This document shows positions 31,637 through 50,085 of a DNA stretch of 64,000 nucleotides, piece after piece. Position 1 is the stretch's first letter, and the number at the start of each line of letters is the position of its first letter. The notes under the pieces were generated by a model. The model had not been told where the DNA came from, did no database searches, and saw nothing but the letters and a program-made list of their open reading frames with translations. This stretch comes from Escherichia virus TH47, in the sequence record MT446416.1; one strand, given 5' to 3'. The translations under genes were made by a program, and so were the position numbers.

Positions 31637-31655
31637 TAGTACTGTGATAATATTT

Positions 31656-33499: not shown

Positions 33500-33709
33500 C
33501 TAATTGCAAGTATTATTTTCTAAAAAATGATTGTATGCTGAATCAACCACTCTTTCGATAACATACGCCAACGGCCCGTATCCAACTACATGACTACAAT
33601 AGAAAGGACTACGATTAGAATCATCGTATGCAAATACTTTTTCAGGATCTGCATCAATCACATACATATTAACCTCTAAGATGTCGATCTTATCCTGTAC
33701 AGTAAGCAT
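33500..33709 (-). CDS. hypothetical small protein
   Basis: start MLTVQDKIDIL at 33707-33709, abutting stop of 33711-33962. Confidence 0.4.
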   Translation of the reverse strand: MLTVQDKIDILEVNMYVIDADPEKVFAYDDSNRSPFYCSHVVGYGPLAYVIERVVDSAYNHFLENNTCN

Positions 33710-33710
33710 A

Positions 33711-33962
33711 TTAATTACCTTTTTCAATGTTTGATAATTCTTCCCAAAAACTTCCCGGATCAATATTATCATAATCCCCTGTAACGTCCTGTAACGCATT
33801 CTCAGGCTGTTTAACGGCTGGGGTAGCCATAGCCATTGCCTGGACTTGTTCGACGCTATAACGCTCATATAGGCGGCATTCTTCCGGTGTTAACATAGCA
33901 TCAATGCGTTTCATTGGTTTAATGATGCTTTCAACTTCATTCAGTACTTGATTAACGTTCAT
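33711..33962 (-). CDS. hypothetical protein
   Basis: 83 aa; GAGGAT RBS. Confidence 0.5.
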   Translation of the reverse strand: MNVNQVLNEVESIIKPMKRIDAMLTPEECRLYERYSVEQVQAMAMATPAVKQPENALQDVTGDYDNIDPGSFWEELSNIEKGN

Positions 33963-34013
33963 GGTATAATCCTCAATATAAGCGGCCTAAATCGACCGCT
34001 AACGATGTTTTGA

Positions 34014-34283
34014 TTAATAGGTGTATGGTTGACGCTCAAACAATGATTGCACGTTGTACGCCCCGCTAATGGGCTTCGCTGGTATGTCGATCTTATATTT
34101 CTCACGCTTAAAGATAATAAAACGGCAATTGTTCTTAACATCAAAATTGATTGAACGTTCCAGGAGTTTTCCATCGTGCACAAATACAAGATAACCGCTC
34201 GCTACTTGTTTTGTAGTACTGGTTGCAACCATTGACCGCCTAACATGCGTACCTGCATCGATTAAAGTACTGATATTTTTCAT
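34014..34283 (-). CDS. hypothetical protein
   Basis: 89 aa; GAGGATAG RBS. Confidence 0.5.
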   Translation of the reverse strand: MKNISTLIDAGTHVRRSMVATSTTKQVASGYLVFVHDGKLLERSINFDVKNNCRFIIFKREKYKIDIPAKPISGAYNVQSLFERQPYTY

Positions 34284-34363
34284 TTTACTATCCTCTTAAT
34301 TTGATTTAATTTCTTTCCCCTATGCAGACACTATATCAAAGTATCTGCATAAAGTAAAGCTAA

Positions 34364-34708
34364 TTAAAGATCTTTTTTGCGTTTAACATCAGTTACCGAA
34401 CTGTAAACAGTGATATTATTGTCACGGCAAAAACGGGAAAGATAAGAACCGCGTAAAAACTCTTTACCTTCCATATTAATAACCTTGCTAAATTCTTCCA
34501 TTGCTACAGTGTCAAAGTGATCCCCATAGCCATATTGGAACGGCACGTTTACTACTTCAATAAATTCGCCATTGATTTCAACATCTACCGTTAAAGAGAA
34601 ATAAGTATTACCATAAGACGCCTGGAACCAACGCCGGGCTGCAATATGTACAACTTCAACAGAAGACAGGTTGATGTTTTGTGCTGTGATAGTGTTGATG
34701 ATAGCCAT
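34364..34708 (-). CDS. hypothetical protein (paralog of 27796-28119)
   Basis: 114 aa; YGYG motif, C-term DVKRKKDL. Confidence 0.5.
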   Translation of the reverse strand: MAIINTITAQNINLSSVEVVHIAARRWFQASYGNTYFSLTVDVEINGEFIEVVNVPFQYGYGDHFDTVAMEEFSKVINMEGKEFLRGSYLSRFCRDNNITVYSSVTDVKRKKDL

Positions 34709-34790
34709 TTTTTGTTTCCTCTTAGTGGGGGAACCATTCCCCTTGATGTAATGTATTATACTTTATCTGATTTACTTTGCAAGTACTTTT

Positions 34791-35018
34791 TTAATTTAAT
34801 TCATCCAGGCAAAGGATACGTTCTACACCTAAATCAGTTAAACTAATAGACGGCACTTGATAGGTTTCAATGTATGCTACACTTGCCCACTGACCGAACT
34901 CATTAACGGCCCAGGTATCCATTGCAAAATGCAATTCCGCACCTGCCTTGTTGGTAATGACTGCAACTACTTGTTCGTTGCCAGTAGTACCAGATACGCG
35001 AGTAATGATAATAGCCAT
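34791..35018 (-). CDS. hypothetical small protein
   Basis: start MAIIITRVSG at 35016-35018; track extension is cassette. Confidence 0.45.
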   Translation of the reverse strand: MAIIITRVSGTTGNEQVVAVITNKAGAELHFAMDTWAVNEFGQWASVAYIETYQVPSISLTDLGVERILCLDELN

Positions 35019-35305
35019 TGTTTTGATTCCTTTTATTTGGAGGGGAAACTGTTTCCCCCCCTCTCGATGTAAAACATTATACGCTAATCTCTTTATAGTG
35101 CAAGTACTTTTTATTACTTTTTGCAAAATACTTTAAACGCTCTCAATCGCTCTATAACAACATTAACGCCACCAGCTAGGGAAATGCATCAGATATTCAG
35201 TTTAATGCGTTAGAATCGTTTCTAGGCGGTGCTGGTGGCCTGGTAAACGGTAAACACAAAAAATCCCACTGTTTAAGGTGGGCTAGTGATTCAGTACTTT
35301 AATTG

Positions 35306-35788
35306 TTATGCTTCAACTTTGCGATGAGCTTCGATCCATTCCTCGCGAGTCAATCCGCTTTCTTTGATAGCATCCAGTACTACCGAAATGCAGTTACCAC
35401 GCACCGGAATCAGATATTCTTCCCCGTTATCAAGTACTACCGCTACACGTTCTTGAATCCATTTTTTAGGCTTAGACTCCGGCTTATCTTCCCCATACTT
35501 AACCGCCAGGGCTTTTTGTGCCATCTCGGTAACTACTTCCATATCCAGCCCATCTACTACCGCCTGGATACTTTCAATTGTTGCTTGTAGTTCTGCTTCA
35601 CGGGCCGCCTTCGCTGCTTCAATCTCTGCCGCTTTATTTGCTTGTAGTTCTTTCGCAGTACTGTAAGCGATGTTAAAATTATTGCGAACCGCTTTCATGG
35701 TATCGTTATCCAGTTCAGCCAGGATCTCTGCCGCTACGTTAGTTTCATTTGCTACCAGTGCTTTGATGAATGATTTGATGTTAGCCAT
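35306..35788 (-). CDS. hypothetical protein, Ala/Glu-rich (coiled-coil-like)
   Basis: start MANIKSFIKAL after GAGGAT; followed by hairpin terminator CCCAC-N-GTGGG + T-run (~35245-35280). Confidence 0.5.
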   Translation of the reverse strand: MANIKSFIKALVANETNVAAEILAELDNDTMKAVRNNFNIAYSTAKELQANKAAEIEAAKAAREAELQATIESIQAVVDGLDMEVVTEMAQKALAVKYGEDKPESKPKKWIQERVAVVLDNGEEYLIPVRGNCISVVLDAIKESGLTREEWIEAHRKVEA

Positions 35789-35939
35789 TAGATAAATCCT
35801 CAATTAAAGTTTAGTTTACGTTCATTAGTGTATCAAAGTTTAATCGACGTGTCCAGTTTTTCGTTCGACTTACTGGCGGTCTACTTAGTGTTCCCCGTCT
35901 TGATGTAATACATTCTACGCCTTTTTGCGGTAATGTCAA

Positions 35940-36500
35940 CTATCTTTTTGAATATTTTTTAATGTATCTCATAATCGCTGGCGGTGTAGTATTATACCTT
36001 TCAGCTAGTATAATTGAGTTAGCATCATGTGAATATGGTTTATACAGTTGTATAACTTCGTTAATCTCTTTTTCAGTTAGTTTTGTCCTAACATGCCTTA
36101 TACCTTCACTCTCATACTTCACTATTTTTTTAATAGGCGTTGCGTCGTCATGTATTCCGGTATCGTGTGCGTGTATTATGTTTTCCTTTCCGGTTGACCA
36201 TTCCAAATTACTGTAATGATTATTACTTTTATTTCTATCCTTATGATTAACCTGGACTTTCTTTCTTTTTGTTTTTTGTGCCCATTCTATTTGTGCAGGT
36301 GTCGGAGGGGGTAGATAGTTGGATGCAACCAATCTTTGAACATACTCAAAATGTTTTGATTTGTCTTCTCTTACAAGCGTTAATCTATGATACCCATCAG
36401 GGCGAATTGTTGGAGAAAGAATATTACTACCATAACGCCTAACATCCCCATACTCACTAATTTCATAAAGGGGATTCTCTTTTAATTGTTTCCATTCCAT
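35940..36500 (-). CDS. HNH-family homing endonuclease
   Basis: N-terminal YEISEYGDVRR...GYHRLTL and LEW-like pattern typical of phage HNH homing endonucleases. Confidence 0.65.
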   Translation of the reverse strand: MEWKQLKENPLYEISEYGDVRRYGSNILSPTIRPDGYHRLTLVREDKSKHFEYVQRLVASNYLPPPTPAQIEWAQKTKRKKVQVNHKDRNKSNNHYSNLEWSTGKENIIHAHDTGIHDDATPIKKIVKYESEGIRHVRTKLTEKEINEVIQLYKPYSHDANSIILAERYNTTPPAIMRYIKKYSKR

Positions 36501-36581
36501 TGATTTGATCCTTTTAGTTTCTCCTTTGTATTATATCACACAAAAACAAAAAAAGCCCACTGTTTAAGGTGGGCTAGTGAT

Positions 36582-36881
36582 TTATAAACAGTTAATTACT
36601 CCTGTGTGCGTTACTTTCTCAGTATCCATTACAGTGACCGAACCGCGTTTAGTACTGGCATCATAATAAATTGTTGTGCTACCTTTCGCATCTTCTTCAT
36701 GGAACGGGCCGTTTTTAAATGCTTCTGGCTGGATCTCTAGATCCTTTAAAACAATATCGCCAGTTCTTTCTTCGGTCATTGCAACAGTGCACTGAATGAA
36801 TTTTTCACTACTTACATCTAACGACGCATTAACAGCGAAAGAGGAAACAGATAAAGCCAGGGAGATGATTGCTACTTTCAT
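36582..36881 (-). CDS. small secreted/periplasmic protein (signal peptide)
   Basis: start MKVAIISLALSVSSFAVNA; hydrophobic core + AxA-like site. Confidence 0.5.
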   Translation of the reverse strand: MKVAIISLALSVSSFAVNASLDVSSEKFIQCTVAMTEERTGDIVLKDLEIQPEAFKNGPFHEEDAKGSTTIYYDASTKRGSVTVMDTEKVTHTGVINCL

Positions 36882-37122
36882 TTGATTATCCTTAGTTACC
36901 AGGGGAACCGTTCCCCCTATGTAAAACATTATACGCGTTTAAAAACTATTATCAAGTACTTTAATATAAAAGTATTTGAAAAATAATTGTTGACAACTGC
37001 ATCCAGTACTGGCATAATACCTACATAAAGACAAAACAGTCTCCAACCCACCGGGTGCATAGATCCGTCTATTAAATGATTCAGTACTGCAAAATAAAGG
37101 GGATCAATTGATCCCCTCTGTA

Positions 37123-37344
37123 TTACTTAGTAAGGTATAAACAGAAGTCACCTTTATTTGCTACGCCGCCAGTGTAACGCGATGAATAGTTAGAAATATC
37201 TTGTACTTCTGCTATTACCAGTGTATCATCATTCATTTCGTCGCAGAAGCAAACGGCTGGATCTTTTACGCCGATATTGTCGGCATGTTCCCGCATAGAT
37301 TTAACCAGTGCTTCCAGTTGAGAAAGAGTAGTGATATTAGCCAT
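37123..37344 (-). CDS. hypothetical small protein
   Basis: start MANITTLSQLEAL at 37342-37344. Confidence 0.45.
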   Translation of the reverse strand: MANITTLSQLEALVKSMREHADNIGVKDPAVCFCDEMNDDTLVIAEVQDISNYSSRYTGGVANKGDFCLYLTK

Positions 37345-37534
37345 TGTATTTTCCTCATTACCAGGGAGAACCATTTCTCCCCTCTATGTAAACTATTATA
37401 CAGTACTGGAAACTAATTGCAAGTACTTAATGGTAAGATCCGCAACGGTTGCAGTAGTTTTATTTGTTCGATCATGATGCTTACTCCTGGTTAAAGGCGG
37501 GAACCATTCCCCGCCATTGTCACAGTACTGAATA

Positions 37535-37774
37535 TTACATTCCAACCATTGCAGCACGGATCGCAGTAGTGCTATACTTGAATCCGTCCGGCGTTGTAGT
37601 AGTACCGTTGGCTTTTAATCTGCGGTACATACATTCCGCTGCAATATCTTTCGTTTTACTTTGAGCGATGCAATTTTGAGCAATCCGGTACAATGATTCA
37701 TCGTTATTGATCCAAAGGCTTACATTCCAATGAGTTTTGTTTTTGTGTCCGTTGTAAGTTTTAGTACTAGCCAT
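37535..37774 (-). CDS. hypothetical protein (paralog of 39563-39790)
   Basis: shared NGHKN-HWNVSLWINNDESLY...AAMVGM. Confidence 0.5.
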   Translation of the reverse strand: MASTKTYNGHKNKTHWNVSLWINNDESLYRIAQNCIAQSKTKDIAAECMYRRLKANGTTTTPDGFKYSTTAIRAAMVGM

Positions 37775-37863
37775 TTTTTAATCCTCTTATATAGTGGGGA
37801 ACTATTCCCCACCTGATGTAAAGTATTATACGCTTTTAAACTTAGTTTGCAAGTACTTTTTAA

Positions 37864-38475
37864 TTAATATGCGATTGATTCTACTACGCCATCAATAACA
37901 TTGAATTGATATTCGTTACCCTCAATCAGTGCCGTAATGTTTTCAGTAGTGAATTGATCCTTATATGCATTCTCTAAATCACGGTAAAACTTGCGTGACA
38001 ATTCACGAATAGTATCAGTTAGTAGTTTCTCAAGCTCATTAACTAACGTTTCTTGTTTTGAGGTTAAATCAGTGTAAGCCGATTCAATGTACCCGCTTAC
38101 AGTGTTCTCATGCGAGTAATGGGAGTGAGATCGCTTTACACTCATCGCCAAATCATCTTCATTCAGCAGGTGACGGATTGAGCGATACTTAGTTAATGCT
38201 CTTACCTTGCGTAAAAACTTCACTGCGTCAACGTGGTCAGTACTGATTGATGCACCGTCACCCTGGGACCAAAAACCACTGAATTGTATTTCAGCGTCAT
38301 TAATGCCATATTCTGGTAGTACTGTTTCTTTATAGTATTCAATTTCACTTTCAGAAAAATAATCGTCGTTTGTGTTTTTTTCACGTTCCCGAACCAGTTC
38401 GATAGCTGACGTTTTTTGTTCTGCGTTCAATTCAGAAAAATCCATAACATAAGTAGTAGTAGTGATAGTTTTCAT
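37864..38475 (-). CDS. hypothetical protein
   Basis: 203 aa; GAGGG RBS. Confidence 0.55.
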   Translation of the reverse strand: MKTITTTTYVMDFSELNAEQKTSAIELVREREKNTNDDYFSESEIEYYKETVLPEYGINDAEIQFSGFWSQGDGASISTDHVDAVKFLRKVRALTKYRSIRHLLNEDDLAMSVKRSHSHYSHENTVSGYIESAYTDLTSKQETLVNELEKLLTDTIRELSRKFYRDLENAYKDQFTTENITALIEGNEYQFNVIDGVVESIAY

Positions 38476-38899
38476 TTTGTAACCCTCATTCAGTAGTTGA
38501 TGTAAGTATTATACGCTTTTAAAAACAATTGTCAAACTATTTTATCAGGGGAGTTTTTCGTATGCCTTACTCCTGGGCTACTCAACGGGGAGTTACTTAT
38601 TTCGTTCCCCGTCCTGATGTAATACATTATACGCCGTTAAACATAGTATGCAAGTACTTTTTAAAATAGTTTTCAGTACTGAATAGTAAAAAGGTATTGA
38701 CAGCACTATCCAGTACTGGCATAATATACCCCATGACAACAGCTAACCCACCGGGTGCACAATTGTAACTGTACTAAACTACTTTTTCTATAGATACACT
38801 CCCGCACCCCGTGGGCCAAATTGTTCGTTTCAATAGATACATTATGCCAGTACTGACAAAATAAGTCAATACTGGCAATTGTAAAGATTTGTAAACTAC

Positions 38900-39130
38900 T
38901 TATACTGCAATCGCGTCCAGGCTATAATAATAATAAGTGCCGTATTGGTGTACTTTATTACCTTTTATTTCAGTACTGAATGAATCCGAACGATTAGCAT
39001 ATGATGTTAATTTAAAGTACTTTGCTTTACTAATACGTTGCCATACACCGCAGATCCGCTGTAAGTAAGTAGTTTTATTAGTGGTAGTATCTTTTACGGT
39101 TTTAACTTCGGTCATATACATATTAGCCAT
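38900..39130 (-). CDS. hypothetical protein
   Basis: start MANMYMTEV at 39128-39130. Confidence 0.45.
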   Translation of the reverse strand: MANMYMTEVKTVKDTTTNKTTYLQRICGVWQRISKAKYFKLTSYANRSDSFSTEIKGNKVHQYGTYYYYSLDAIAV

Positions 39131-39217
39131 TTTTTTAATCCTCTTATGTAGTGGGGAAGTATTCCCCATCTGATATAAAGTATTATACGCTTTTAAACTT
39201 AGTATGCAAGTACTTTT

Positions 39218-39481
39218 TTATAGTACTGCAATCTTTTTAGTACGGTACACGGTAACGCGATTGCCCTTGCGGTCGTGCTTTATTTCTACTACTCGCCGCG
39301 ATACACTATCAGGACTTTTTAACGCCGCCAACCAGTACTGTAAAGATCTGGCTTTACTTTGCTTTACTACCGCCCAACGTTTACCACGTTCCGATTGTCC
39401 GCCCATATCTTTAAACGTCGCCCCGTCCAGACGTGCGGCGATCCGTGCTTGTTCACGCGTCACAAAGTACATAATATTCAT
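39218..39481 (-). CDS. hypothetical protein (paralog of 27305-27700)
   Basis: 87 aa. Confidence 0.5.
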   Translation of the reverse strand: MNIMYFVTREQARIAARLDGATFKDMGGQSERGKRWAVVKQSKARSLQYWLAALKSPDSVSRRVVEIKHDRKGNRVTVYRTKKIAVL

Positions 39482-39562
39482 GCTGTTACCCCATCGTTGA
39501 CGTATAAAAGAAATCTATTATAAAGTACTATCACCGTGCAATAGTACTTTAAATATATTCTA

Positions 39563-39790
39563 TTACATTCCAACCATCGCCGCACGCACGCTTGATTTGC
39601 TATAACGTGCCCCATCAGGCGTGTGAGTACCTAAAAGGCGTAACATCCGCTCAACCGCTTTATCTCGCGTGTTGGTGCTTTTAATACTTTCCAGGGCCAA
39701 TTGGTACAGTGATTCATCGTTATTGATCCAAAGGCTTACATTCCAATGGTTGTAGTTTTTATGGCCGTTGAAAGTTTTAGTAGTAGTCAT
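39563..39790 (-). CDS. hypothetical protein (paralog of 37535-37774)
   Basis: 75 aa. Confidence 0.5.
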   Translation of the reverse strand: MTTTKTFNGHKNYNHWNVSLWINNDESLYQLALESIKSTNTRDKAVERMLRLLGTHTPDGARYSKSSVRAAMVGM

Positions 39791-39883
39791 TTTTAATTCC
39801 TCTTAAGTGCAGCGGGAACCATTCCCGCTCTCGATGTAATACATTATACGCTATTTGATAGTACTGTCAAACTAATTTTTAAC

Positions 39884-40246
39884 TTATTCGTAAATTTTGC
39901 CACTGTCAGCCCATACCAGGAAACGAGGCATATTATCCCATGCATCTTGTTTTAAATTTAAACCGTGTAATACTTCTGTACTTTCCATTCCTGGTACTGG
40001 TTTACTATACACCGCGAACATTTCACCCATATACTGATAAGCCATCGTTAAATCACTGGCGATCATCTTATGGATCATCGCATCAAGCATCACGGTAGCG
40101 GCGTATTGTTCACGCTTAAGCGGCAACATTGCAATAAGTCCACGATAAGCTGAAATGTGAATTTTTACCGTTTCTGCCGGAAGATCTTTCATCTCGTCGC
40201 GGAAGTTAACCAGGTTAGCAATAATTTTATTGATTTGTGTCGCCAT
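39884..40246 (-). CDS. hypothetical protein (first gene downstream of the 2-kb control region)
   Basis: 120 aa; preceded by TTGCAT-N16-TATAAT and stem-loop. Confidence 0.55.
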   Translation of the reverse strand: MATQINKIIANLVNFRDEMKDLPAETVKIHISAYRGLIAMLPLKREQYAATVMLDAMIHKMIASDLTMAYQYMGEMFAVYSKPVPGMESTEVLHGLNLKQDAWDNMPRFLVWADSGKIYE

Positions 40247-40380
40247 CGTTTTTAATCTCTCTTAAAGTGCAGCGGGAACCATTCCCGCTCTCGATGTAAT
40301 ACATTATACGCCGTTAAACATAGTATGCAAGTACTTTCTACAAATACTTTTAAAATAGTTTTCTTTCTATATAGGGGAAC

Positions 40381-40436
40381 TATCTTTCAGTACTATCTTT
40401 CAGTACTATCATTCAGTACTATCATTCAGTACTGAA
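40381..40436. repeat. four tandem 12-13-bp repeats (TTCAGTACTATCWT)
   Basis: ctttcagtactat x2, cattcagtactat x2 read directly. Confidence 0.7.
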
Positions 40437-40596
40437 TCAATCCACTAAATCATCCCTATACCCCGTAAAACGGCCTCAGACGCATTCTAACGCATTAATA
40501 CACCTAAGCTATACATTTGCACCATTCCAATCATTCCAGGGCTTTACGGGCCGTTGAAACGCGTTAAATTATTTTCAATTATTTTGTTTTTAGGTA

Positions 40597-40624
40597 TTGA
40601 CTTGATCCTGAAAAAGCGTATAAT
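40597..40624 (+). promoter_or_regulatory. plus-strand sigma70-like promoter TTGACT-16-TATAAT
   Basis: -35 40597-40602, -10 40619-40624; no convincing ORF downstream. Confidence 0.5.
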
Positions 40625-40937
40625 TACTACATAAGCCGGACACAAGGCACTAACCCACAGGGTGCGGAATTACGCCCAAAATTCAAGATATAAAAAAAGG
40701 ATACACTCCCGCACCCTAGCAGGTCAACGCACTTTCTCAGTACTGAAATATAGTACCATAGTACTTGCCAGGATAGCAAGCAAATTAATTAAAACTTTTT
40801 TGCTTCCAGGGTATTGCTTTATTTTTTCAGTACTGTATAATAGTTTCATCAAGTCGAGAAAGACTCAAGCCCACCGGGTGCATAGTTACGCCCAAAATTC
40901 AGTACTGAAAAAATTTTTAAAATATCTGTCCAGGCCG

Positions 40938-40966
40938 TTGACATTGCCCCCAGTTTATAAGATAAT
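40938..40966 (+). promoter_or_regulatory. plus-strand sigma70-like promoter TTGACA-17-GATAAT
   Basis: -35 40938-40943, -10 40961-40966; followed by palindromic GGGGAAnnnTCCCC hairpins and iteron-like repeats. Confidence 0.5.
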
Positions 40967-41060
40967 GATTCCAGATTCAGAAAAATCTAACTCCAGATAC
41001 TGCGGGGAAACTATCCCCACGCGGTAGGGGAACTATTGGAAAAAACAAAATAAAATTTTG

Positions 41061-41175
41061 ATTTAGCCGTCTATACTTCCAGACGTGTAACCATCTAGCC
41101 GTTTAGCCGTCCAAACGTCTAGCCATCCAGCCATCCAGAAATCTAGCCGTTTAGCCGTCTAGATGGATAGCCATC
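41061..41175. repeat. iteron-like direct repeats (TAGCCGT / TAGCCAT / CCAGCCAT)
   Basis: at least 8 copies of 7-8-bp units within ~115 bp, locally GC-richer. Confidence 0.6.
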
Positions 41176-42109
41176 TTTACTTCCATACTTCTGGAGGTCT
41201 AGACATATCTACGTCCAAAATCCACCCAGGGTTACTACACCCAAAATCCGTCAGTACTATACCATAGATCTATCTTTTGAAAGGGAGTATTCAGTACTGC
41301 CATCATAGCCCTCACTATGTTACCCTAGGAGGATGAAGACTATCATGTAGTACTGAATACTGTTAGAGGGAATCCACCAGCTTGTGCTGGTGGCATAATG
41401 CTTTAGATTAAAATCAGTACTGACACCATTCTGTTAATATCAGTACTGTTATTACGATTTTCATATGAGGTTCAAAAAGATGTACCACCACAGGAGGAAC
41501 TATCTTTTCTGTACTGTCTCACGACAGGAGGTAGAGTAAATGAATTGTTCGCAGCAACTCATCTCTCTATGTAGAACATTATACAGTACTGAATCATAAT
41601 GTCAATAACTTTCTTTCACCATTCAGTACTGATATTCTTGAGAACTACCCGTCTACAAACATCATTATATCCCACAAATCATAAACGTCCCAACGTAAAT
41701 TTCAACTTTCGAAGATCCAACTTTTATTTCATAGGTACTCCAAAATTTTTAGGATCGAGATTTAGGATGGAGTACTAACCAACTTTTTGCTGGAGCCTCA
41801 AGGGGTAATTGAATTTTACCCCGAAGGGTAAAAGGGTAATTGAAATTAAGGTGAAAGTAATAATTCAGTACTAATCATTGCGTGATTACTTTTGATTACA
41901 TTTGATGTAATTTGCAAAATGGAAAAGGAGCTTGGAAACTAAAAAGTACGGTAGACTTCCTCTGCCTACTTAGTGGGATATCGACACCTTCAGTACTGAA
42001 TACTTTTGGGGCAGTACTGCTACGTTCTTGATTAAACGTGCACATTCCTGTACTCTATTACACTCTAGTACTCACTACTGATCAGTACTGATCACTACAG
42101 TGATTATAA

Positions 42110-42157
42110 ATGATTACTTAAATGTTTATATATGATTACTTATGATTACTTATGACA
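42110..42157. repeat. tandem ATGATTACTT repeats
   Basis: three to four copies read directly. Confidence 0.6.
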
Positions 42158-42312
42158 AAGAGAAGCCAAAAGCTTCTCTGTAGAGTTACGGGGTTTAGCC
42201 TGGAGAGAATCCTAGTGATCGCATTTGTCCAGGCTGAATTTTAACAATTCGCCTGTACATAAAGGTTGTTCACTAGGAGCTTCCCCAGTCTCTATGTGCT
42301 CTATATGTTGAA

Positions 42313-42522
42313 TTACTTCCTATATATAAGTATTAACATATAGTAGTACTGATTATGCTGTACATTCTCTTTAATATTATAAGGGTCTATAGCAATCTCG
42401 GTACATCTGTTAAATGCATATCTATTAAATGCCAGTACTATTAGATTGTTAACCCATGCTTGTTCGTTTTCTTTTAGTTTACTTATATAGTACTCTTTAT
42501 ACTCTTTATACTCTTTATGCAT
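42313..42522 (-). CDS. FamC small protein
   Basis: N-term MHKEYKEYKEYYISKL, C-term LILIYRK. Confidence 0.5.
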   Translation of the reverse strand: MHKEYKEYKEYYISKLKENEQAWVNNLIVLAFNRYAFNRCTEIAIDPYNIKENVQHNQYYYMLILIYRK

Positions 42523-42535
42523 AGTATTATCTCTA

Positions 42536-42718
42536 TTAATATGATAGTACTAGTGTTAGTACTGAGCACAATTGTTCTTTATAGTTCTTAGGGTATATAG
42601 AATCTTTTATGCACTCATTGAAGTGCCATAGGTATAATCTTGGGTCGCATTCTTTATATATTTTTACGGGGACGAATGTTAGTTTTCTTATATAGAAGTC
42701 TTTATGTTCTTTATTCAT
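42536..42718 (-). CDS. FamC small protein
   Basis: N-term MNKEHKDFYIRKL. Confidence 0.5.
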   Translation of the reverse strand: MNKEHKDFYIRKLTFVPVKIYKECDPRLYLWHFNECIKDSIYPKNYKEQLCSVLTLVLSY

Positions 42719-42920
42719 ATAGGAATAGTATACCTATGATGCCTGAGTACAGGTTAGTACTGTTATTATTGTCGTTTGCGTTTAAAGTCATTTGAATACA
42801 ATTATTGTAGCATAATCTGCCGAAATATGTATCAGTACTTAAAGGTGGTGTAGTTCTTAGAAACATTTGTTCTGATGTACTGAGGTGTTTGGAGTAGTAT
42901 TCTTTATGTTCTTTATTCAT
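42711..42920 (-). CDS. FamC small protein
   Basis: N-term MNKEHKEYYSKHL. Confidence 0.5.
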   Translation of the reverse strand: MNKEHKEYYSKHLSTSEQMFLRTTPPLSTDTYFGRLCYNNCIQMTLNANDNNNSTNLYSGIIGILFLYE

Positions 42921-42925
42921 ATTAG

Positions 42926-43111
42926 TTAGTGTCTGTATATAAGTAATAGTAAGAATACGTACTGCACCTGTTCATCTTTAGTATTGAGTACTGTACGTAT
43001 TGCGTCATGGAACAAGAATATAGTACTTGGGTCATTAGAATTTAAGGGGTTTACGGGGACGGCGTGTTTGTAGTTCCCTTTAACAAATTGTATATAGTAT
43101 TCTTTATACAT
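42926..43111 (-). CDS. FamC small protein
   Basis: N-term MYKEYYIQFV, C-term LLLLIYRH. Confidence 0.5.
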   Translation of the reverse strand: MYKEYYIQFVKGNYKHAVPVNPLNSNDPSTIFLFHDAIRTVLNTKDEQVQYVFLLLLIYRH

Positions 43112-43112
43112 A

Positions 43113-43292
43113 TTAGTACCTGAATATTAGGGCGAGAATGTAGTACATATAATTTTGGTTCACAGCACAGTCAGTATGGTCAATGAATTGTTGGGTCTTT
43201 TTCTTATCCTTGAAATCTATTGGGTTTAGTAGTATAAGCATTTGGGAGTTTATATCCAGATGGCTTACGTAGAATTCTTTATAGTTATTCAT
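43113..43292 (-). CDS. FamC small protein (59 aa)
   Basis: manual translation MNNYKEFYVSHLDINSQMLILLNPIDF...ILALIFRY; below track cutoff. Confidence 0.45.
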   Translation of the reverse strand: MNNYKEFYVSHLDINSQMLILLNPIDFKDKKKTQQFIDHTDCAVNQNYMYYILALIFRY

Positions 43293-43491
43293 AGAAGAAT
43301 ATTAGTCCTATTACACCTGAGTACATAATATTTTTGTTATTGTATTCTAATGCGTCTAGAGTACTACGTATACAATTATTAAAGCAATCTCTGGCGTGTT
43401 GTGTATCTAAACGTAAAGGTGATACACTCCTTAGAAACATTTGTTCTTCGTTGCTGAGGTATTTGGTGTAGAATTCTTTCTGTTCGTTCAT
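43285..43491 (-). CDS. FamC small protein
   Basis: N-term MNEQKEFYTKYL. Confidence 0.5.
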   Translation of the reverse strand: MNEQKEFYTKYLSNEEQMFLRSVSPLRLDTQHARDCFNNCIRSTLDALEYNNKNIMYSGVIGLIFFYE

Positions 43492-43501
43492 ATTGGCCTC
43501 T

Positions 43502-43690
43502 TTAGTACACGAAAGCTAGGTACAGTACATGATACAGTACTTGATTATAGTTGTAATAATTTATCACGCATTTAGTGCACGTAATGAAGTAGTCTTTTTC
43601 GTAGTTTATTTCTATACCGCGAGGTTCATCTTCTAACAGATTACCTTGAAGGTGCGGTGGTAAATCTTTTATGTAGTATTCTTTATACAT
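43502..43690 (-). CDS. FamC small protein
   Basis: start MYKEYYIKDL at 43688-43690. Confidence 0.5.
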   Translation of the reverse strand: MYKEYYIKDLPPHLQGNLLEDEPRGIEINYEKDYFITCTKCVINYYNYNQVLYHVLYLAFVY

Positions 43691-43691
43691 A

Positions 43692-43882
43692 TTAGTACCT
43701 GAATATAAGTAGGATAGTGTTATATAGTTGGTCATAACTACTACTATTTTCTATACTGCGTTCTATGCAGTTATTGAATCCCAGTACTGCCAAATCGTTA
43801 TCCAGGGGGGGACTTTATATCTGGCGTAGTATTCAAAAATGCTGGGGAGAAATTGTGTGTAGTATTCTTTGTGGTTGTTCAT
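43692..43882 (-). pseudogene. FamC member with frameshift at a C7/G7 homopolymer
   Basis: MNNHKEYYTQFLPSIFEYYARYKVPP... then second frame ...FNNCIERSIENSSSYDQLYNTILLIFRY; shift at run ~43803-43812. Confidence 0.4.
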
Positions 43883-43892
43883 ATTGTTCTCT

Positions 43893-44075
43893 TTAGTACT
43901 TATATATTAGGGCGAGGATGTAGTACAGTTTATATATTCTATCCTCGTACATTAGGGTGTACTTAGTACATTCTTGAAACATTGTTTTTGCGTCATCTTT
44001 TATGCCCAATGCAACGTTTGGTATATGGCTCTGTAGATGCATTGGAAGTTTCTCTATGTAGTATTCTTTATACAT
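43893..44075 (-). CDS. FamC small protein
   Basis: start MYKEYYIEKLPMHLQ at 44073-44075. Confidence 0.5.
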   Translation of the reverse strand: MYKEYYIEKLPMHLQSHIPNVALGIKDDAKTMFQECTKYTLMYEDRIYKLYYILALIYKY

Positions 44076-44739
44076 AGTTTGAAATATACGTAATGAGGTG
44101 ATGAATTTTCTTATCAGTACTGATAAGTTCCTGTACATGTTTTGTTAGTTTGTACGCGTTTTTATAGAGTCCTGGATTATCGATTACAGTACTGTACATG
44201 AATTCTTCTTCTGGTGTTAATTCTTTGTTTTGTAGTTCTTTTAGGAATTGCAGTACTGTAATAGTTTCTTCTGTACGTTGCTGTTGGAAGAAATGCATGT
44301 TATCGTGTACTTTTTCTGAACCAATGCAGTACATATCGCCGATTTGGAATTGTGCTGTACGGATATCATGGGTGCTATTACAATTCCCGAAGAAGTATAC
44401 ATTCCCGAAAGATAGAATTATAGTGCACGGGATATTATCCAGGTGCATATAGATATAGATAGATGCGTCCTCTAGTGCTTTTGTGCTGGTATTAGTACTC
44501 AATACTTTTAAATCAGTATTATAGATATTCATATAATGAACAGCTATATTATTTTTCTTCATGTACAATTCAAGGTTCTTTGATACGTTAACTCCATTTG
44601 TACTGGTTTTTTTACTTTTCTTTAGGTTCTTTAGTACATTAGGGTGATAAGTATATGCATTAGTAATAGATTCAGCCTGGATGGATTGCAAGTACTTAAA
44701 GTGCTGTAGGTATCGTTTACTTTGTGGATTGAGTTTCAT
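44068..44739 (-). CDS. hypothetical protein, paralog of 53657-54307, with FamA-like C-terminal segment
   Basis: 223 aa; shared KKNNIAVHYMN/CNST segments; C-terminal EEEFMYSTVIDNPG. Confidence 0.5.
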   Translation of the reverse strand: MKLNPQSKRYLQHFKYLQSIQAESITNAYTYHPNVLKNLKKSKKTSTNGVNVSKNLELYMKKNNIAVHYMNIYNTDLKVLSTNTSTKALEDASIYIYMHLDNIPCTIILSFGNVYFFGNCNSTHDIRTAQFQIGDMYCIGSEKVHDNMHFFQQQRTEETITVLQFLKELQNKELTPEEEFMYSTVIDNPGLYKNAYKLTKHVQELISTDKKIHHLITYISNYV

Positions 44740-44750
44740 ATTGGTTTCCT

Positions 44751-44930
44751 TTATATAGATGCGAGTGCGAGGATTTCCCTGTAGGGATTATCTTGTGTTA
44801 GTGCGTGATGAATGCAGCTATTGAGATTAATATTTTTAGTACTGTTAGTTGCTAGGTTGTAGTACTTCACGAAGGTGTCGTACATGAAACGGTCTTTAAT
44901 GCTTATGTGTTCTATATAGTATTCTTGCAT
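44751..44930 (-). CDS. FamC small protein
   Basis: start MQEYYIEHISIKDRF at 44928-44930. Confidence 0.45.
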   Translation of the reverse strand: MQEYYIEHISIKDRFMYDTFVKYYNLATNSTKNINLNSCIHHALTQDNPYREILALASI

Positions 44931-44994
44931 ATTATTCCTTAGATTTAGATTAGTTTTAGTACTTCTCTGTACGTGTACTTTTCGTTTTGTGCTT

Positions 44995-45117
44995 CTACTG
45001 TACATGATAGAAAGTATCGTTTTTATCTCTTTTGTTCCCGACTGTGTAGTACCTTTGGAATTGATTATAAATGTATCTATCTTTGTGCTGAAGTTTATAG
45101 ATATAGAATTCTTGCAT
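44995..45117 (-). pseudogene. truncated FamC remnant (40 codons)
   Basis: MQEFYIYKLQHKDRYIYNQFQRYYTVGNKRDKNDTFYHVQ then stop. Confidence 0.3.
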
Positions 45118-45125
45118 AGAGTACC

Positions 45126-45311
45126 TTAGATAGAGATTAGTTTTAGTACTTCAATATATGTGCGGTACTCTGCTTTAATTAAATTTGTACACACTGTAAG
45201 GGAACTTCTTTGTATAAGTTTATTGCCGCTTTTATACGCATTTCTCCACACATAGAGATGAGATCTTTCTGGCATAGATAGTTTATTTGTATAGTACTCA
45301 AATGTATTCAT
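45126..45311 (-). CDS. FamC small protein
   Basis: start MNTFEYYTNKLSMPE at 45309-45311. Confidence 0.45.
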   Translation of the reverse strand: MNTFEYYTNKLSMPERSHLYVWRNAYKSGNKLIQRSSLTVCTNLIKAEYRTYIEVLKLISI

Positions 45312-45321
45312 AGTATTCTCT

Positions 45322-45507
45322 TTACATATCAATAAGTTTCAGTACTGCTCTGTACGTGTACTTAGTTGTTAGTGTTTCTTTTATAGCAGTACAGAAGTAA
45401 TGTTGTTTGTCTCTAGTACTGACGCGTTTGTAGTACCATACATGGGAGTTGTGGCTGTACTTGTCCCTGTCGGATAGTTTTTGGTAATAGTAGCTTTTAT
45501 GATTCAT
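45322..45507 (-). CDS. FamC small protein
   Basis: N-term MNHKSYYYQKL. Confidence 0.45.
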   Translation of the reverse strand: MNHKSYYYQKLSDRDKYSHNSHVWYYKRVSTRDKQHYFCTAIKETLTTKYTYRAVLKLIDM

Positions 45508-45728
45508 TGTAATGTAATTAGCCTTATTATGTTAAAGTACTCGGTCCCTGGTACACCTTGTAGAATATTATCAACTACATTTATTTGGTGCAGGATGAGT
45601 ACATTCGGTGCGGATCTTTTAAGGTTTTTTTAAAGTACTGAATTCTTGTTTAAGGATGTTCTGCACATCTTTAGGGAGAATATCTAAGTAGTACTGATGA
45701 ATGTTCATAGTTTTCATATAGTACTCTT

Positions 45729-45914
45729 TTAGAACTTAAAGATGAGGTTCATGATAGATAAGTACTTAGTTTCAGGAAATTGATGTTCTATTGCATAACG
45801 TGTCGCCAGTCTGAAGTCAAATTTATAAAAGGGAGTATTCATATCCAGAGGTTCATTGGGGAATGAATCTCGGTATTGCTTGTGCAGCTTACTACAGTAG
45901 AATTCTTTATACAT
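45729..45914 (-). CDS. FamC small protein
   Basis: N-term MYKEFYCSKL. Confidence 0.45.
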   Translation of the reverse strand: MYKEFYCSKLHKQYRDSFPNEPLDMNTPFYKFDFRLATRYAIEHQFPETKYLSIMNLIFKF

Positions 45915-45915
45915 A

Positions 45916-46128
45916 TTAGTGCTCGATTAATAGGGTAAGGATGTAATAGTATTGCATACTTTCTACCCCTTGTAAAGCATTTCTTATTTTATTATTCCTG
46001 TACGAGTTCAAGAGTTTAGGACAATGTTTGAGGTTTATATAATTATTTTGTGTATACAGTAGGCTTTCTCGTAGACCTTTTGTTGGTAGTGCATCGATGT
46101 AGTACTGTTCAATGTTCATAGTGTTCAT
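45916..46128 (-). CDS. FamC-like small protein
   Basis: N-term MNTMNIEQYYIDAL. Confidence 0.45.
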   Translation of the reverse strand: MNTMNIEQYYIDALPTKGLRESLLYTQNNYINLKHCPKLLNSYRNNKIRNALQGVESMQYYYILTLLIEH

Positions 46129-46455: not shown

Positions 46456-47577
46456 ATGTTACCTTTTGTTAGAATGTTTGATTATGGAAATGAAGCACCT
46501 GATCCTAGTTCGGGATTTCGAATAATAAGTACAGGAGACGCATTACTATTAATTACTGAGAGTGGTGATTTGTGGGTGCGTGGTTATAACCGTTATGGCA
46601 AGTTAGGTATAGGTAATAACACCACTACCTATGTACTTGATTGGACGAAGGTTAGAAGTGATGTGAAGTTTGCGTGTGGTAGTGGATTGGTAACAGTTAT
46701 CTTTACTAAGGATAATCGTATATTGTACTGTGGTGACAAATGGTTTGAAACGGGTGGTGTTGGTAGTGCACAGATTTTCACATGGACAGATGTTACGCAC
46801 CAATTTGGGGTAGTAGATTTGAGTACAGTAAGGGATATGAAAATGTCTTATTACACGATTGGATTATTGACTACTAATAATCAATTATACGCTAAGGGAT
46901 TTGATAATAACCTATCATTTGGTGGGGTTACTAATAAGGCGACTGCTGTGTTTATTGCGAATAATGTACAAGAGTTGTATACGAGTTTAGTTAGTACTAT
47001 CTACGTTGATACAAGTGGTATATTACATCGTTGTGGCATGAGTGATAACGGTTCGTTGGGTAATAATGGTAGTTTAACTTCGTATCTAAGTTATTCACAG
47101 CCTGGTATGACGATTAAGGACATTGGAATGATGACTACGAACACTGGGTTATTATATACTGATTCTAGTGCACGCACGAGATATTTTATTGCTGGACAGA
47201 ACTTGAATAAACAGATGGGTAATGCGGCGTCTGCGAGTGCCATTACGAGTACTTACACAGAGCTTTCTGGTAGTGTTGATAAGTTTTCTTCTTTATGGGA
47301 GAATGATGGGATATTGATGACATTTGCTGTGGGTAAGAACACTAATCAGTTATTTTATGCTGGGACGAATACTTTTCATGCGAGTGGTGGTGAATCTTCA
47401 TATGCGGATACATATGAGTTAGTCCCGATGGTGTTTAATGACATACAGGAAGTGTTATGTGCACAGCGTTTATCGGTGGTACATGATTCTACGAAGTGGT
47501 ATTACTGTGGTGATGCTAATTCAATGTATGGTTTACCGGACGTAAGTACTTTTACTGAGTTACCGTTGCCCTTTTAA
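46456..47577 (+). CDS. RCC1-like repeat (beta-propeller) protein, FamD copy 1
   Basis: N-term MLPFVRMFDYGN; repeats GYNRYGKLGIGN etc.; AGGAGGG RBS; TATAAT 46434-46439. Confidence 0.8.
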   Translation: MLPFVRMFDYGNEAPDPSSGFRIISTGDALLLITESGDLWVRGYNRYGKLGIGNNTTTYVLDWTKVRSDVKFACGSGLVTVIFTKDNRILYCGDKWFETGGVGSAQIFTWTDVTHQFGVVDLSTVRDMKMSYYTIGLLTTNNQLYAKGFDNNLSFGGVTNKATAVFIANNVQELYTSLVSTIYVDTSGILHRCGMSDNGSLGNNGSLTSYLSYSQPGMTIKDIGMMTTNTGLLYTDSSARTRYFIAGQNLNKQMGNAASASAITSTYTELSGSVDKFSSLWENDGILMTFAVGKNTNQLFYAGTNTFHASGGESSYADTYELVPMVFNDIQEVLCAQRLSVVHDSTKWYYCGDANSMYGLPDVSTFTELPLPF

Positions 47578-47585
47578 TAATAGGT

Positions 47586-47615
47586 CAGTACTGAAATATG
47601 TACTGGTATTTTTTG
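47586..47615 (+). terminator. intrinsic terminator hairpin + T-run
   Basis: CAGTAC-N8-GTACTG followed by TTTTTTG. Confidence 0.55.
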
Positions 47616-47654
47616 TAAATACTATATAATTATTTTAATTTTGGAGATTTAATC

Positions 47655-48824
47655 ATGTTACCTTTTGTTAGAATGTTTGATTATGGGAATGTAGCACCTG
47701 CACCACCGAAATTTAAAAAAATACTCACCAATAACTACAACGTTGCAGTTTTAACAAGCAGTGGGGATTTATATGTACGTGGGAATAATCAAAACGGTCA
47801 ATTGGGTTTAGGTCACAAAGAAAAAGTTACTACATGGACGTTTAGTACTTCTGGTGTTCAAGATTTTTGGTTTGGTAGTTCAACACTAGTGGTTAAAAAA
47901 ACCGATGATGAAATATGGTACAGTGGACAGTCAACCTCTGTTGGTATGCCAGGGGCATCTGTATCGGGGTGGACTTCTGCCATGCCGACATTCAATACAT
48001 TAACATTACCAATATTAGATATGGCAGTTAGTAATCAGACTACAAGTGTATTACTATCAGACCGAACAATATGGAGTACTGGGGTAGGAAGTAATGGTCA
48101 ATTGGGTAATGGAACTGCGACGAACAACATTTCAGGTAAATTCGTCAAAAGTACTGTTTCGACAGAAGAAGAACAATTACCAGTTAAATTGTTTGCCAGT
48201 AATTTAATGCATGGATATGTTACCGAGAACGGCTGGTTATACTACACTGGGCAACCCAATGCAGTTAGCACTAATGGCAGTGCGGTATATAGTGTTTATA
48301 CTAGTGCTCCTATTAGTCTAAGGAATACCATTAATATCAAGTACTATACAAATAATGGAACTTCGATGGCGATGGCTATTGGTACAGATCCAAATGGTAA
48401 GACCGTACTTGCTAATGGTGGCCCTAGGATATTTGGTGCACAGGCTGACGGAGTAAATGGTCAACTAAGTAATATTAGGCCATTTGCTGTTCAAACCGAA
48501 TCATTGATGCCTCCTGGGGATTTGGTAAGTATTGCTCATAATACTTCATATTATAACCAAGTTATTGCTACAACAGATGGTATATATTGTTGCGGCTACA
48601 ACCAATCTACACACGCTGGTATGTTAGGCATTGGTACATCTACTAACGCATTAGTATATACCAAAGCAATCGTACCTGATGGTTTTGATTATAGTAAATC
48701 GCAAATGGCAGGTGAGTATAACCGTACTTATATAACTGATGGTAATTTTGTATATAGTACAGGGACAGATGTCACATATGGTGGCATTAATAGCTTAGAA
48801 TTTGTAATAGATTCACCATTATAA
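47655..48824 (+). CDS. RCC1-like repeat protein, FamD copy 2
   Basis: N-term MLPFVRMFDYGN; GNNQNGQLGLGH, GSNGQLGNG. Confidence 0.8.
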   Translation: MLPFVRMFDYGNVAPAPPKFKKILTNNYNVAVLTSSGDLYVRGNNQNGQLGLGHKEKVTTWTFSTSGVQDFWFGSSTLVVKKTDDEIWYSGQSTSVGMPGASVSGWTSAMPTFNTLTLPILDMAVSNQTTSVLLSDRTIWSTGVGSNGQLGNGTATNNISGKFVKSTVSTEEEQLPVKLFASNLMHGYVTENGWLYYTGQPNAVSTNGSAVYSVYTSAPISLRNTINIKYYTNNGTSMAMAIGTDPNGKTVLANGGPRIFGAQADGVNGQLSNIRPFAVQTESLMPPGDLVSIAHNTSYYNQVIATTDGIYCCGYNQSTHAGMLGIGTSTNALVYTKAIVPDGFDYSKSQMAGEYNRTYITDGNFVYSTGTDVTYGGINSLEFVIDSPL

Positions 48825-48830
48825 AAAGAA

Positions 48831-48861
48831 AAGCCAGTACTTGATACTGGCTTTTCTTTTT
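48831..48861 (+). terminator. intrinsic terminator (AGCCAGTAC-TTGA-TACTGGCT + T-run)
   Basis: hairpin read directly; same element after copies 3 and 6. Confidence 0.6.
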
Positions 48862-48868
48862 GTATTAA

Positions 48869-48884
48869 ATATAGTATAATGAAT
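48869..48884 (+). promoter_or_regulatory. -10-only promoter-like motif TATAATGAATA (T4-late-like?)
   Basis: TATAAT 48875-48880, ~17 nt upstream of ATG, RBS AAGGAGGG; no good -35. Confidence 0.4.
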
Positions 48885-48897
48885 AAAGGAGGGAATT

Positions 48898-50007: not shown

Positions 50008-50021
50008 TACTATAAAACTAT

Positions 50022-50050
50022 GCCAGTACTTGATACTGGCTTTTCTTTTT
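50022..50050 (+). terminator. intrinsic terminator (GCCAGTAC-TTGA-TACTGGC + T-run)
   Basis: read directly. Confidence 0.6.
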
Positions 50051-50085
50051 GATTAAATATAGTATAAAGAATAAAGGAGGGAATT

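Follow-up and report, generated by a model that had tools for sequence, protein, structure and literature searches.

The gene-free stretch at positions 40250-42310 of the window, by which we mean the whole 64,000-nucleotide stretch of Escherichia virus TH47 analysed here (sequence record MT446416.1), probably forms the non-coding "end module" in which a long direct terminal repeat (DTR) terminates. The right boundary of this repeat, at 41970/41971 within the gene-free DNA, likely coincides with one physical end of the chromosome. The element is a terminal untranslated region of the T5 type with three features that were undescribed in the literature searched: a conserved family of predicted RNAs, an 8-bp array found across phage families and Chi sites confined to the repeat. 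An earlier note on this DNA had described the region as a non-coding control region, and as either a candidate replication origin or a locus for non-coding RNAs. That description was partly right: a control region with non-coding RNAs is supported, whereas an origin is unlikely, and the note missed both the end of the terminal repeat and the inverted Chi pair inside the region. Overall, we consider it likely that the end at 41970, the end module, its promoters, the Chi sites and the array belong together as described below.

A long direct terminal repeat ends within the region

The region matches 42 phage records by megablast, mainly Asteriusvirus jumbo coliphages (such as 121Q, PBECO4, G17 and BF17) at up to ~96 % identity, and 34 of the 42 span 80 % or more of its length. 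The window phage is accordingly a jumbo phage of the genus Asteriusvirus, in the 121Q/PBECO4/G17 group. Exact duplication of the ends was tested in these relatives, and the termini of the window phage were taken by homology. In the linear G17 record, 20,668 bp are duplicated exactly at the two ends; the first base of this duplication corresponds to window 23462 and the last to window 41970. The repeats of BF17 and fEgEco12 measure 20,590 bp and 20,993 bp. Both of the latter records start with AGTAGGCAGAGGAAGTCT, which is the window minus strand read from 41970, and finish with GGGCGGGTAACCT, which is window 23462; the terminal nucleotide is identical in all three phages and aligns to window 41970. 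The records of CRJP21, BAU.Micro_ELP-22 and E9.1 begin in the same register as BF17 and fEgEco12, the vB_Ec-M-J record annotates the stretch as "Direct Terminal Repeats", and the record of Klebsiella phage Muenster gives a PhageTerm repeat at 1-20030 that opens with 1.3 kb of gene-free DNA. Published values are ~20 kb for the redundancy of G17, judged from doubled coverage (PMC6563267), 20,993 bp for the DTR of fEgEco12 by PhageTerm, with restriction digests confirming it (PMC13070987), and 22.5 kb for the repeat of CBB (PMC5259590).

The virion DNA carries the repeat at both ends, with a length of ~18.5 kb here and 20.6-21.0 kb in relatives. The window thus consists of unique DNA to 23461, the DTR from 23462 to 41970 and unique DNA from 41971, and since the DTR ends at 41970, the region divides into a 1.72-kb non-coding leader inside the repeat and a 0.34-kb flank on the unique side. 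The segment 40250-41970 is the last 1.72 kb of the chromosome, with its second copy lying internally at the junction of the left repeat with unique DNA, and the unique DNA next to it, 41971-42310, lies downstream of the FamC operon.

Conservation follows this division. In the alignment of 11 Asteriusvirus genomes on which the conservation and open reading frame (ORF) comparisons are based, the leader scores 0.85-1.0 per 20-nt bin, comparable to neighbouring coding DNA, and the terminal block remains at ~0.8-0.98 up to 41970-41983 before values of 0.5-0.7 with many indels set in, ~12 nt past 41970. The arrangement also extends beyond the genus: in Serratia phage BF, Erwinia phage pEa_SNUABM_12 (Eneladusvirus) and Xanthomonas phage XbC2 (Mimasvirus), the record opens with 1.7-1.8 kb that lack genes, and the genes that come next are directed away from the end. 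The record of Yersinia phage fHe-Yen9-04, which begins further in, has a gene-free leader of 1.07 kb. The leader blocks occur in identical order in these four phages, and in part at the genome ends of Alcyoneusvirus phages as well.

The putative cut site itself recurs at these ends. The BF record ends with GACTTCAGGAGAAGATA, the XbC2 record with GACTTCAGGAACAGATA and the window repeat with GACTTCCTCTGCCTACT. In three metagenomic uncultivated virus genomes (UViGs L025, L028 and L029), in which the repeat is collapsed, the junction reads GACTTC-N11/TAGCGG, and in the window GACTTC-N11/TAGTGG. Since GACTTC-N11 followed by a record end or junction is shared by Serratia phage BF, XbC2 and the three UViGs, which make up three other lineages, the putative cut site is homologous across genera. 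Read inward, both DTR boundaries of the window are CTA/AG, and TGATTAC repeats flank the cut on both sides, at 41883-41906 inside and 42101-42155 outside; this 260-bp zone holds five of the window's ten plus-strand copies. The GACTTC-N11/TAG zone with its flanking TGATTAC repeats would be the region that terminase recognises and cleaves. Two further candidates were rejected: a symmetric boundary motif, TATCGA-N8/DTR/N8-TATCGA, which is present at both window boundaries and has lost TATCGA by deletion in several relatives, and a terminator-like hairpin at the extreme end (41951-41969), which is no more stable than shuffled sequence (z -0.19).

Chi sites are confined to the repeat

The window contains 10 exact Escherichia coli Chi sites where 0.59 are expected (a count reached in 0 of 100 shuffles), all of them within the DTR, between 24835 and 41393, and none in the other 45 kb. 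The same holds for G17, with 10 sites in its repeat and 0 in the 24 kb of flanking unique DNA. Eight of the window sites lie on the minus strand and two on the plus strand, and many are intergenic. The inverted pair in the region, which is present in most Asteriusvirus relatives, folds into a hairpin (z -3.24) that the G17 annotators called a terminator; a second close pair in opposite orientation lies at 35169/35231. The orientation rule for Chi belongs to established RecBCD biology. By this rule, RecBCD that enters at the 41970 end reads the plus-strand site at 41386 after 577 bp, and RecBCD that enters at the 23462 end reads the eight minus-strand sites, meeting the first of them after 1.4 kb. 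Such sites may allow the repeat to survive RecBCD and its two copies to recombine, and the 8:2 bias gives a weak hint that exposure is greater at the 23462 end. In phage P1, too, Chi sites cluster at the terminal redundancy (PMC12315714). Many octamers one mismatch away from Chi occur in seven paralogous plus-strand genes of ~370-416 aa at 46456-55510, which are RCC1-like, or "chromosome condensation regulator", in relatives.

Conserved promoters and predicted structured RNAs

Sites matching the sigma-70 promoter consensus in at least 11 of 12 positions number three in the region, compared with 0.12 in shuffles, and promoter-like sites in total show no excess (13 against 17.4 expected by chance). 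Two of the three, P1 and P3, had been reported in the earlier note as near-consensus plus-strand promoters, and both are indeed 11/12 matches; the third, a perfect match on the minus strand pointing inward from the genome end, had been overlooked. The sequences of pEa_SNUABM_12 and UViG L025 show inward equivalents of it (TTGACG-16/17-TATGAT/TAAGAT). For P1 and P3 alike, Asteriusvirus, Eneladusvirus, Mimasvirus and three IMG/VR contigs retain the -35 and -10 hexamers, and the spacers between them vary.

Downstream of P1, the alignment of 10 sequences yields a consensus fold for RNA1 (RNAalifold), with a small 5' hairpin closed by a GAGAAA-type loop and a long helix, in which 8 of the 17 pairs show changes on both sides. 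Paired cells make up 92.9 % against 83.6 % after shuffling, and the covariation score is 0.328 against 0.166 (each 0 of the 500 shuffles used for these tests), with slid controls at or below 0.10. The RNA1 covariance model scores 93 bits on the plus strand and 41 on the minus strand; these scores and the G-U pairs favour a plus-strand RNA. In the P3 leader, two hairpins at 40973-40988 and 41004-41018 (the second being GGGGAaactaTCCCC) are 100 % paired in the 9 aligned sequences, 7 of 8 pairs are altered on both sides, and covariation reaches 0.708 against 0.205 (0 of 500). Their stems differ wholly by lineage (GGGGA/TCCCC, CTAGA/TCTAG, CTAGT/ACTAG and CTGGT/ACCAG) and always pair. They are followed by an invariant block, ACGCGGwAGGGGArCTAwTGGAAAA (ACGCGGTAGGGGAACTATTGGAAAA at 41019-41043 in the window), and then by the array. 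Only one of the GGGGAAnnnTCCCC hairpins proposed earlier is a true hairpin, that at 41004-41018; the other GGGGAAC occurrences are not. Minimum free energy z-scores are -3.89 for RNA1, -3.50 for the P3 leader, -4.6 for the array read as RNA and a weak -1.38 for RNA2, which is a 76 % direct repeat of the 5' half of RNA1 (26 bits, E 1.4e-4, with the RNA1 model, which places a weak paralogue after P2 at 40843-40969).

The idea that the promoters drive non-coding RNAs is therefore supported by conserved hexamers with variable spacers and by compensatory helices, and P1 and P3 are predicted to produce small structured RNAs. Matches to the P3 leader model were confined to Rak2-like jumbo phages, and neither this model nor the RNA1 model found a match in the T5-like or T7-like loci searched. 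RNA1-like copies also occur elsewhere, two strong ones in EJP2 and three in Muenster. A further unit with a promoter of its own lies outside the region in a 425-bp intergenic gap of the DTR, among minus-strand early genes (38697-38843), which suggests a dispersed family of small RNAs in antisense orientation within the repeat. Identity with a known RNA or tRNA family was ruled out: Rfam 15 gave no match at the gathering score on the window and chance-level matches only at E<=5 on the region, and a tRNA/tmRNA search gave none.

An 8-bp repeat array is shared with unrelated phages

The TAGCCGT-like repeat cluster of at least eight copies in the earlier note is real and larger than described, with ~20 contiguous 8-bp units by register scan and 12.4 copies by Tandem Repeats Finder (TRF); this TCTAGCCN array is the only one of its kind in the 64 kb. 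It recurs, with the 8-bp register unchanged, in the leaders at Eneladusvirus and Mimasvirus genome ends, in the T5-like phages Pontus of Vibrio (18 units) and AhSzq-1 of Aeromonas (32 units), where it lies in untranslated DNA near A1/A2 homologues, and 40-120 nt from the end of the T7-like Ermolevavirus phage PGT2, inside its terminal copies. A three-unit pattern search of IMG/VR returned 16 stretches, which by our own estimate is near chance expectation, and each new locus was then register-scanned: of 14 further loci, 9 held at least 8 units and 5 were rejected as arrays. Confirmed arrays lie in contigs of 42.6, 63.6, 66.4, 89.9, 111.5 and 115.7 kb and in two of ~371 kb, and in the 42.6-kb T7-like phages they are near or within the genome ends. 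A scan of the T5 genome for the 8-bp array found none. The contiguity of the 8-bp units and their presence in phages with unrelated replication systems argue against initiator iterons and suggest a function tied to genome ends.

In Pontus (700-810) and AhSzq-1 (3870-3925), perfect DnaA boxes (TTATCCACA) and palindromes resembling SOS boxes (CTGTATATTTATACAG) come after the array; the Asteriusvirus leader has neither. Muenster (6391-6510) lacks the TCTAGCCN array and has instead about six Fur-box-like repeats (AATGAGAATCATTATCATT), a motif that is repeated in the injection stop signal (iss) of T5 (9574-9722) and occurs once in the RNA1 loop of Eneladusvirus.

Table 1 Coordinates of features in and around the region (window positions)
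Feature	Position	Strand	Description
Inferred direct terminal repeat (DTR)	23462-41970		18,509 bp; holds the small early genes of the minus strand; the region forms its right-hand tip
Inferred chromosome end and packaging cut	41970-41971		...CTCTGCCTACT / TAGTGGG...
Conserved terminal block, candidate terminase recognition region	41640-41970		GACTTC 41954-41959 + 11 nt; TGATTAC repeats 41883-41906
Unique-side flank	41971-42312		between DTR and stop codon of last FamC gene; variable
Inverted E. coli Chi pair, hairpin	41374-41393		CCACCAGC-ttgt-GCTGGTGG
Promoter P1	40597-40624	+	TTGACT-16-TATAAT, 11/12; A/T-rich upstream 40560-40596, 97-100 % conserved
RNA1, predicted structured transcript	40626-40738	+	5' hairpin, then long helix GGGUGCGG/CCGCACCC extended by ACC/GGU
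Probable promoter P2 and truncated RNA1-like unit (RNA2)	40814-40925	+	P2 is TTGCTT-16-TATAAT, 40814-40841
Promoter P3 and leader	40938-41046	+	P3 is TTGACA-17-GATAAT, 40938-40966, 11/12
8-bp-period array, ~20 units	41054-41221	+	consensus TCYAGNCN / TAGCCGTC; units TCTAGCCG, TTTAGCCG, TCCAGCCA
Perfect sigma-70 promoter, inward from genome end	41605 to 41578	-	TTGACA-16-TATAAT, 12/12; CAGTACTG abuts -10
Further RNA1-like unit with own promoter	38697-38843	+	TTGACA-17-CATAAT; RNA1 model 25 bits, E 3e-4
Promoter and leader of first early gene (39884-40246)	40247-40335	-	-35 TTGCAT 40325-40330 abutted by AGTACT; -10 TATAAT 40303-40308
Tandem array, 13-bp unit x4.2	40379-40433		each unit with AGTACT site; TRF, 97 % matches

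Alternative readings of the region

The region could hold small protein genes that annotation has missed, and the JP4 and fEgEco12 records do annotate short ORFs here ("hypothetical protein x7" and g614), but these ORFs vary between records and none of at least 30 aa is conserved in all 11 aligned genomes. One minus-strand ORF of 33-44 aa ending at 40544 is retained in 10 of the 11; its persistence is uninformative because it lies beneath P1 in DNA that is near-invariant (97-100 % conserved). The curated relatives carry no annotation across the region, and its flanking genes are small early ORFs. We regard missed genes as highly improbable, and both the earlier remark that there is no convincing ORF and the label "non-coding control region" are correct. 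A second possibility is that the stretch exists purely to express regulatory RNAs, namely RNA1 to RNA3 and an inward antisense RNA of ~0.9 kb, with its position at the repeat end being incidental. The conserved promoters, the covarying helices and the RNA1-like units at 38697-38843, in EJP2 and in Muenster all speak for it. Nevertheless, different genera share the terminal 330 bp and the cut site in the absence of any RNA signal, the array is found in phages that have neither RNA1 nor the P3 leader, and the Chi pair acts at the level of DNA, which makes an exclusively RNA-based purpose rather unlikely.

A replication origin, either promoter-primed or of the iteron type, would have the array as initiator sites and the A-rich tract at 41040-41060 as unwinding element. 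P3, this tract and the array do lie in series, the cumulative GC skew has its minimum at ~41-42 kb, and recombination-dependent initiation from Chi-processed ends would let the repeat act in an origin-like manner. The skew minimum is, however, not diagnostic of an origin because the switch coincides with the boundary between DTR and unique DNA and with a change of gene family. The iteron origin proposed earlier is not supported: the 8-bp units stand back-to-back and out of helical phase, in contrast to iterons of 17-22 bp that are spaced, the array also occurs in other, unrelated phage families, and no initiator gene is adjacent. Searches of the region found no DnaA or LexA boxes (TTWTNCACA is absent from 40250-42310 on both strands) and a single IHF-like match, which is within chance. 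In addition, T5 origins have been reported near the genome centre (bioRxiv 10.1101/866236). An origin is neither shown nor favoured by these observations, and we consider it unlikely. The repeat might instead be the DNA of a first-step transfer, with its untranslated, repeat-rich far end halting entry until early proteins are made, as the iss does in T5. The layout agrees with that of T5: in T5, the terminal repeat (LTR) occupies 1-10219, the pre-early genes point mostly leftward and the iss lies at the inner end (9140-10149), and an untranslated, repeat-rich inner end is present here as well. The 1.72 kb and 340 bp of our region compare with 1.2 kb for T5 Repeat Region 3 and 270 bp for its overrun beyond the repeat (bioRxiv 10.1101/866236). 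Both untranslated regions are as conserved as the ORFs of the repeat, or more so, the TCTAGCCN array of T5-like Aeromonas and Vibrio phages is likewise untranslated and close to their A1/A2 homologues, and 8 of the 10 Chi sites would protect the end leading in a T5-like entry. Against this, the DnaA-box pairs proposed for the T5 iss (the paired DnaA/DnaA* boxes of the Davison model) were not found in 40250-42310, the array is absent from T5 itself, and its location 40-120 nt from the end of a T7-like phage does not match a stop after 5 % of the genome. No A1/A2 homologues were seen in the window, where no search for them was made, and the literature searched holds no report of two-step transfer for this phage group. 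An injection stop of this kind is doubtful, though conceivable.

Proposed working of the end module

Under the end-module reading, terminase would recognise and cut concatemers at the GACTTC-N11/TAG block with TGATTAC on both sides. On DNA entry, host sigma-70 polymerase would fire from the strong leader promoters: the outward P1 to P3 would make small structured RNAs, with the P3 transcript reading into the 8-nt array, and the perfect promoter would point inward. The inverted Chi pair and the eight further Chi sites of the repeat would tame RecBCD at the free ends, which would be channelled into recombination of the two repeat copies to form circles or concatemers. The TCTAGCCN array would represent a cassette common to unrelated terminal-repeat phages, most likely as the binding site of a factor that acts at genome ends while DNA enters the cell or is packaged; binding of a replication initiator specific to the phage is less likely.

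Several observations weigh against this reading. The termini of the window phage are transferred by homology, with the terminal sequence conserved at 83-100 %, and UE-S1 was published with a DTR of 8.3 kb (PMC12805682), which we set aside because it is considered a misassignment in a later paper (PMC13070987). The 8:2 orientation bias of Chi is not significant alone, and the leaders of A4 and of Eneladusvirus phages have no Chi. The transcripts of P1 to P3 are predictions from sequence; a scan for plus-strand intrinsic terminators found none in the region, so that RNA1 and the P3 leader have no clear terminator. Moreover, the covariation is based on ~5-6 independent lineages, and the perfect palindromes could equally be protein-binding sites on DNA.

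A more ambitious proposal, which we put forward tentatively and think improbable in its entirety, is that the leader represents a genome-end module that giant Rak2-like phages have conserved and that consists of two new elements. One would be an immediate-early family of structured RNAs confined to this supergroup (the RNA1-like units and the P3 RNA), and the other a TCTAGCCN cassette exchanged among jumbo myoviruses, T5-like siphoviruses and T7-like podoviruses that docks a gamma-proteobacterial factor for DNA entry or end processing, with the ~20-kb repeat being delivered first in T5 style and protected by Chi.

If the end is correctly placed, chromosome ends are set for the whole genus, many records of which (121Q, PBECO4 and SP27 among them) were deposited with an arbitrary start and only one, collapsed copy of the repeat. 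The placement would also account for a 2-kb gap that is left empty by some annotation pipelines and populated with spurious ORFs by others. A featureless gap thereby turns into four testable questions on how giant phages survive the first minutes of infection: whether Chi sites in the repeat tame RecBCD, whether host-polymerase promoters at the extreme end of the DNA make conserved RNAs, whether the conserved end sequence is the packaging cut site and what binds the array. The presence of the array in jumbo, T5-like and T7-like phages alike suggests that a shared player is at work at phage genome ends.

Comparison with known phage systems

The closest counterpart is the untranslated repeat region (iss) of the T5 terminal repeat. 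Both are 1-2 kb of gene-free DNA rich in repeats and palindromes at the inner end of a long DTR that is filled with small genes for host takeover; each extends beyond the repeat boundary by a few hundred bp and is highly conserved among relatives (bioRxiv 10.1101/866236). They differ in that our region has no DnaA-box pairs, no GTGCAAATCCGACA (DRD) repeats and no sequence homology to T5, the repeats of which are different; T5 lacks the TCTAGCCN array, and our region has conserved outward promoters with predicted structured RNAs and a Chi pair. The ~20-kb DTRs of Rak2-like phages (G17, fEgEco12, CBB and Muenster) share the same repeat and terminus, our region being the leader at which their records begin or end. 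The literature searched on these four describes the repeat and its length only, with promoters, RNAs, array, Chi sites and the sequence of the cut site undescribed.

T7-like phages have short-repeat arrays (SRL/SRR) next to the terminal repeat, and the T7 repeats differ in sequence and spacing. The likeness to our region thus lies in short direct repeats near the ends of terminal-repeat phages, and PGT2 does carry the TCYAGNCN array. Phage P1 and the Chi-rich lambdoid phages resemble the window phage in that exact GCTGGTGG is over-represented and concentrated in terminally repeated DNA, where it presumably turns RecBCD from a destroyer into a helper of recombination (PMC12315714). In contrast, P1 packages by headful (pac) and has ~50 Chi sites, whereas the window has 10, confined to an exact DTR and with an inverted pair 577 bp from the end.

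Early-gene cassettes, other repeats and neighbouring features

The leader of the first early gene is read from the sequence as a hairpin, AGCGGGAACCATTCCCGCT at 40271-40289, plus a ribosome-binding site. This minus-strand cassette (-10 TATAAT, hairpin and ribosome-binding site) is reused before successive small genes, at 39790-39851 and 40250-40311; the 62-nt copy at 39790-39851 is 89 % identical, and a D2 copy lies at 41563-41605.

The four tandem 12-bp repeats that the earlier note placed at 40381-40436 are real, with a corrected period of 13 and a span of 40379-40433. Their copy number and organisation differ among the 11 genomes, so the fourfold array is specific to the window phage. In UViG L029 (371 kb), GGATAGTACT is repeated 11 times in tandem at +830 to +940 after the P3 block, just past the conserved terminus; it corresponds to the AGTACTATC core of this 13-bp repeat in reverse complement.

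The unique-side flank holds ATGATTACTT/TGATTAC repeats at 42101-42155. The ATGATTACTT repeats reported at 42110-42157 were recovered by TRF at 42110-42155, outside the terminal repeat, with period 10 and 4.4 copies. The flank also contains a conserved inverted repeat, AGCCTGGA...TCCAGGCT, at 42197-42243. At 42157-42186, a 30-nt perfect hairpin (AGAGAAGC-caaa-aGCTTCTCT) is an insertion found in the window phage and UE-S1 only, and on the minus strand it resembles an intrinsic terminator for the FamC operon.

The CAGTACTG palindromes described as numerous are so, with 12 in the region, and the motif is genome-wide, with 65 in the window against 0.9 expected. Its AGTACT core occurs 269 times in the window against 21 expected (13-fold over) and reaches 10.7/kb in the region compared with a window average of 4.2/kb (~2.5x). 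It prefers C/G flanks (CAGTACTG), has deserts at 7800-16200 and 18650-23590, and often abuts early promoters, as AGTACTTGACA at the -35 in 16 cases and as CAGTACTGTATAAT at the -10 in 12. In the leader, 16 of 18 AGTACT sites are kept in at least 8 of 10 relatives, and the motif stands out just as clearly in the leaders of Eneladusvirus and Mimasvirus and close to the array of AhSzq-1; it is probably the site of a DNA-binding or DNA-modifying factor.

Next to the region, the FamC array (42313-46128) consists of minus-strand genes of ~60-70 aa with positive GC skew (+0.07 to +0.19). This sign is opposite to that of the other minus-strand blocks, so the skew switch at ~42 kb does not simply reflect the direction of transcription.

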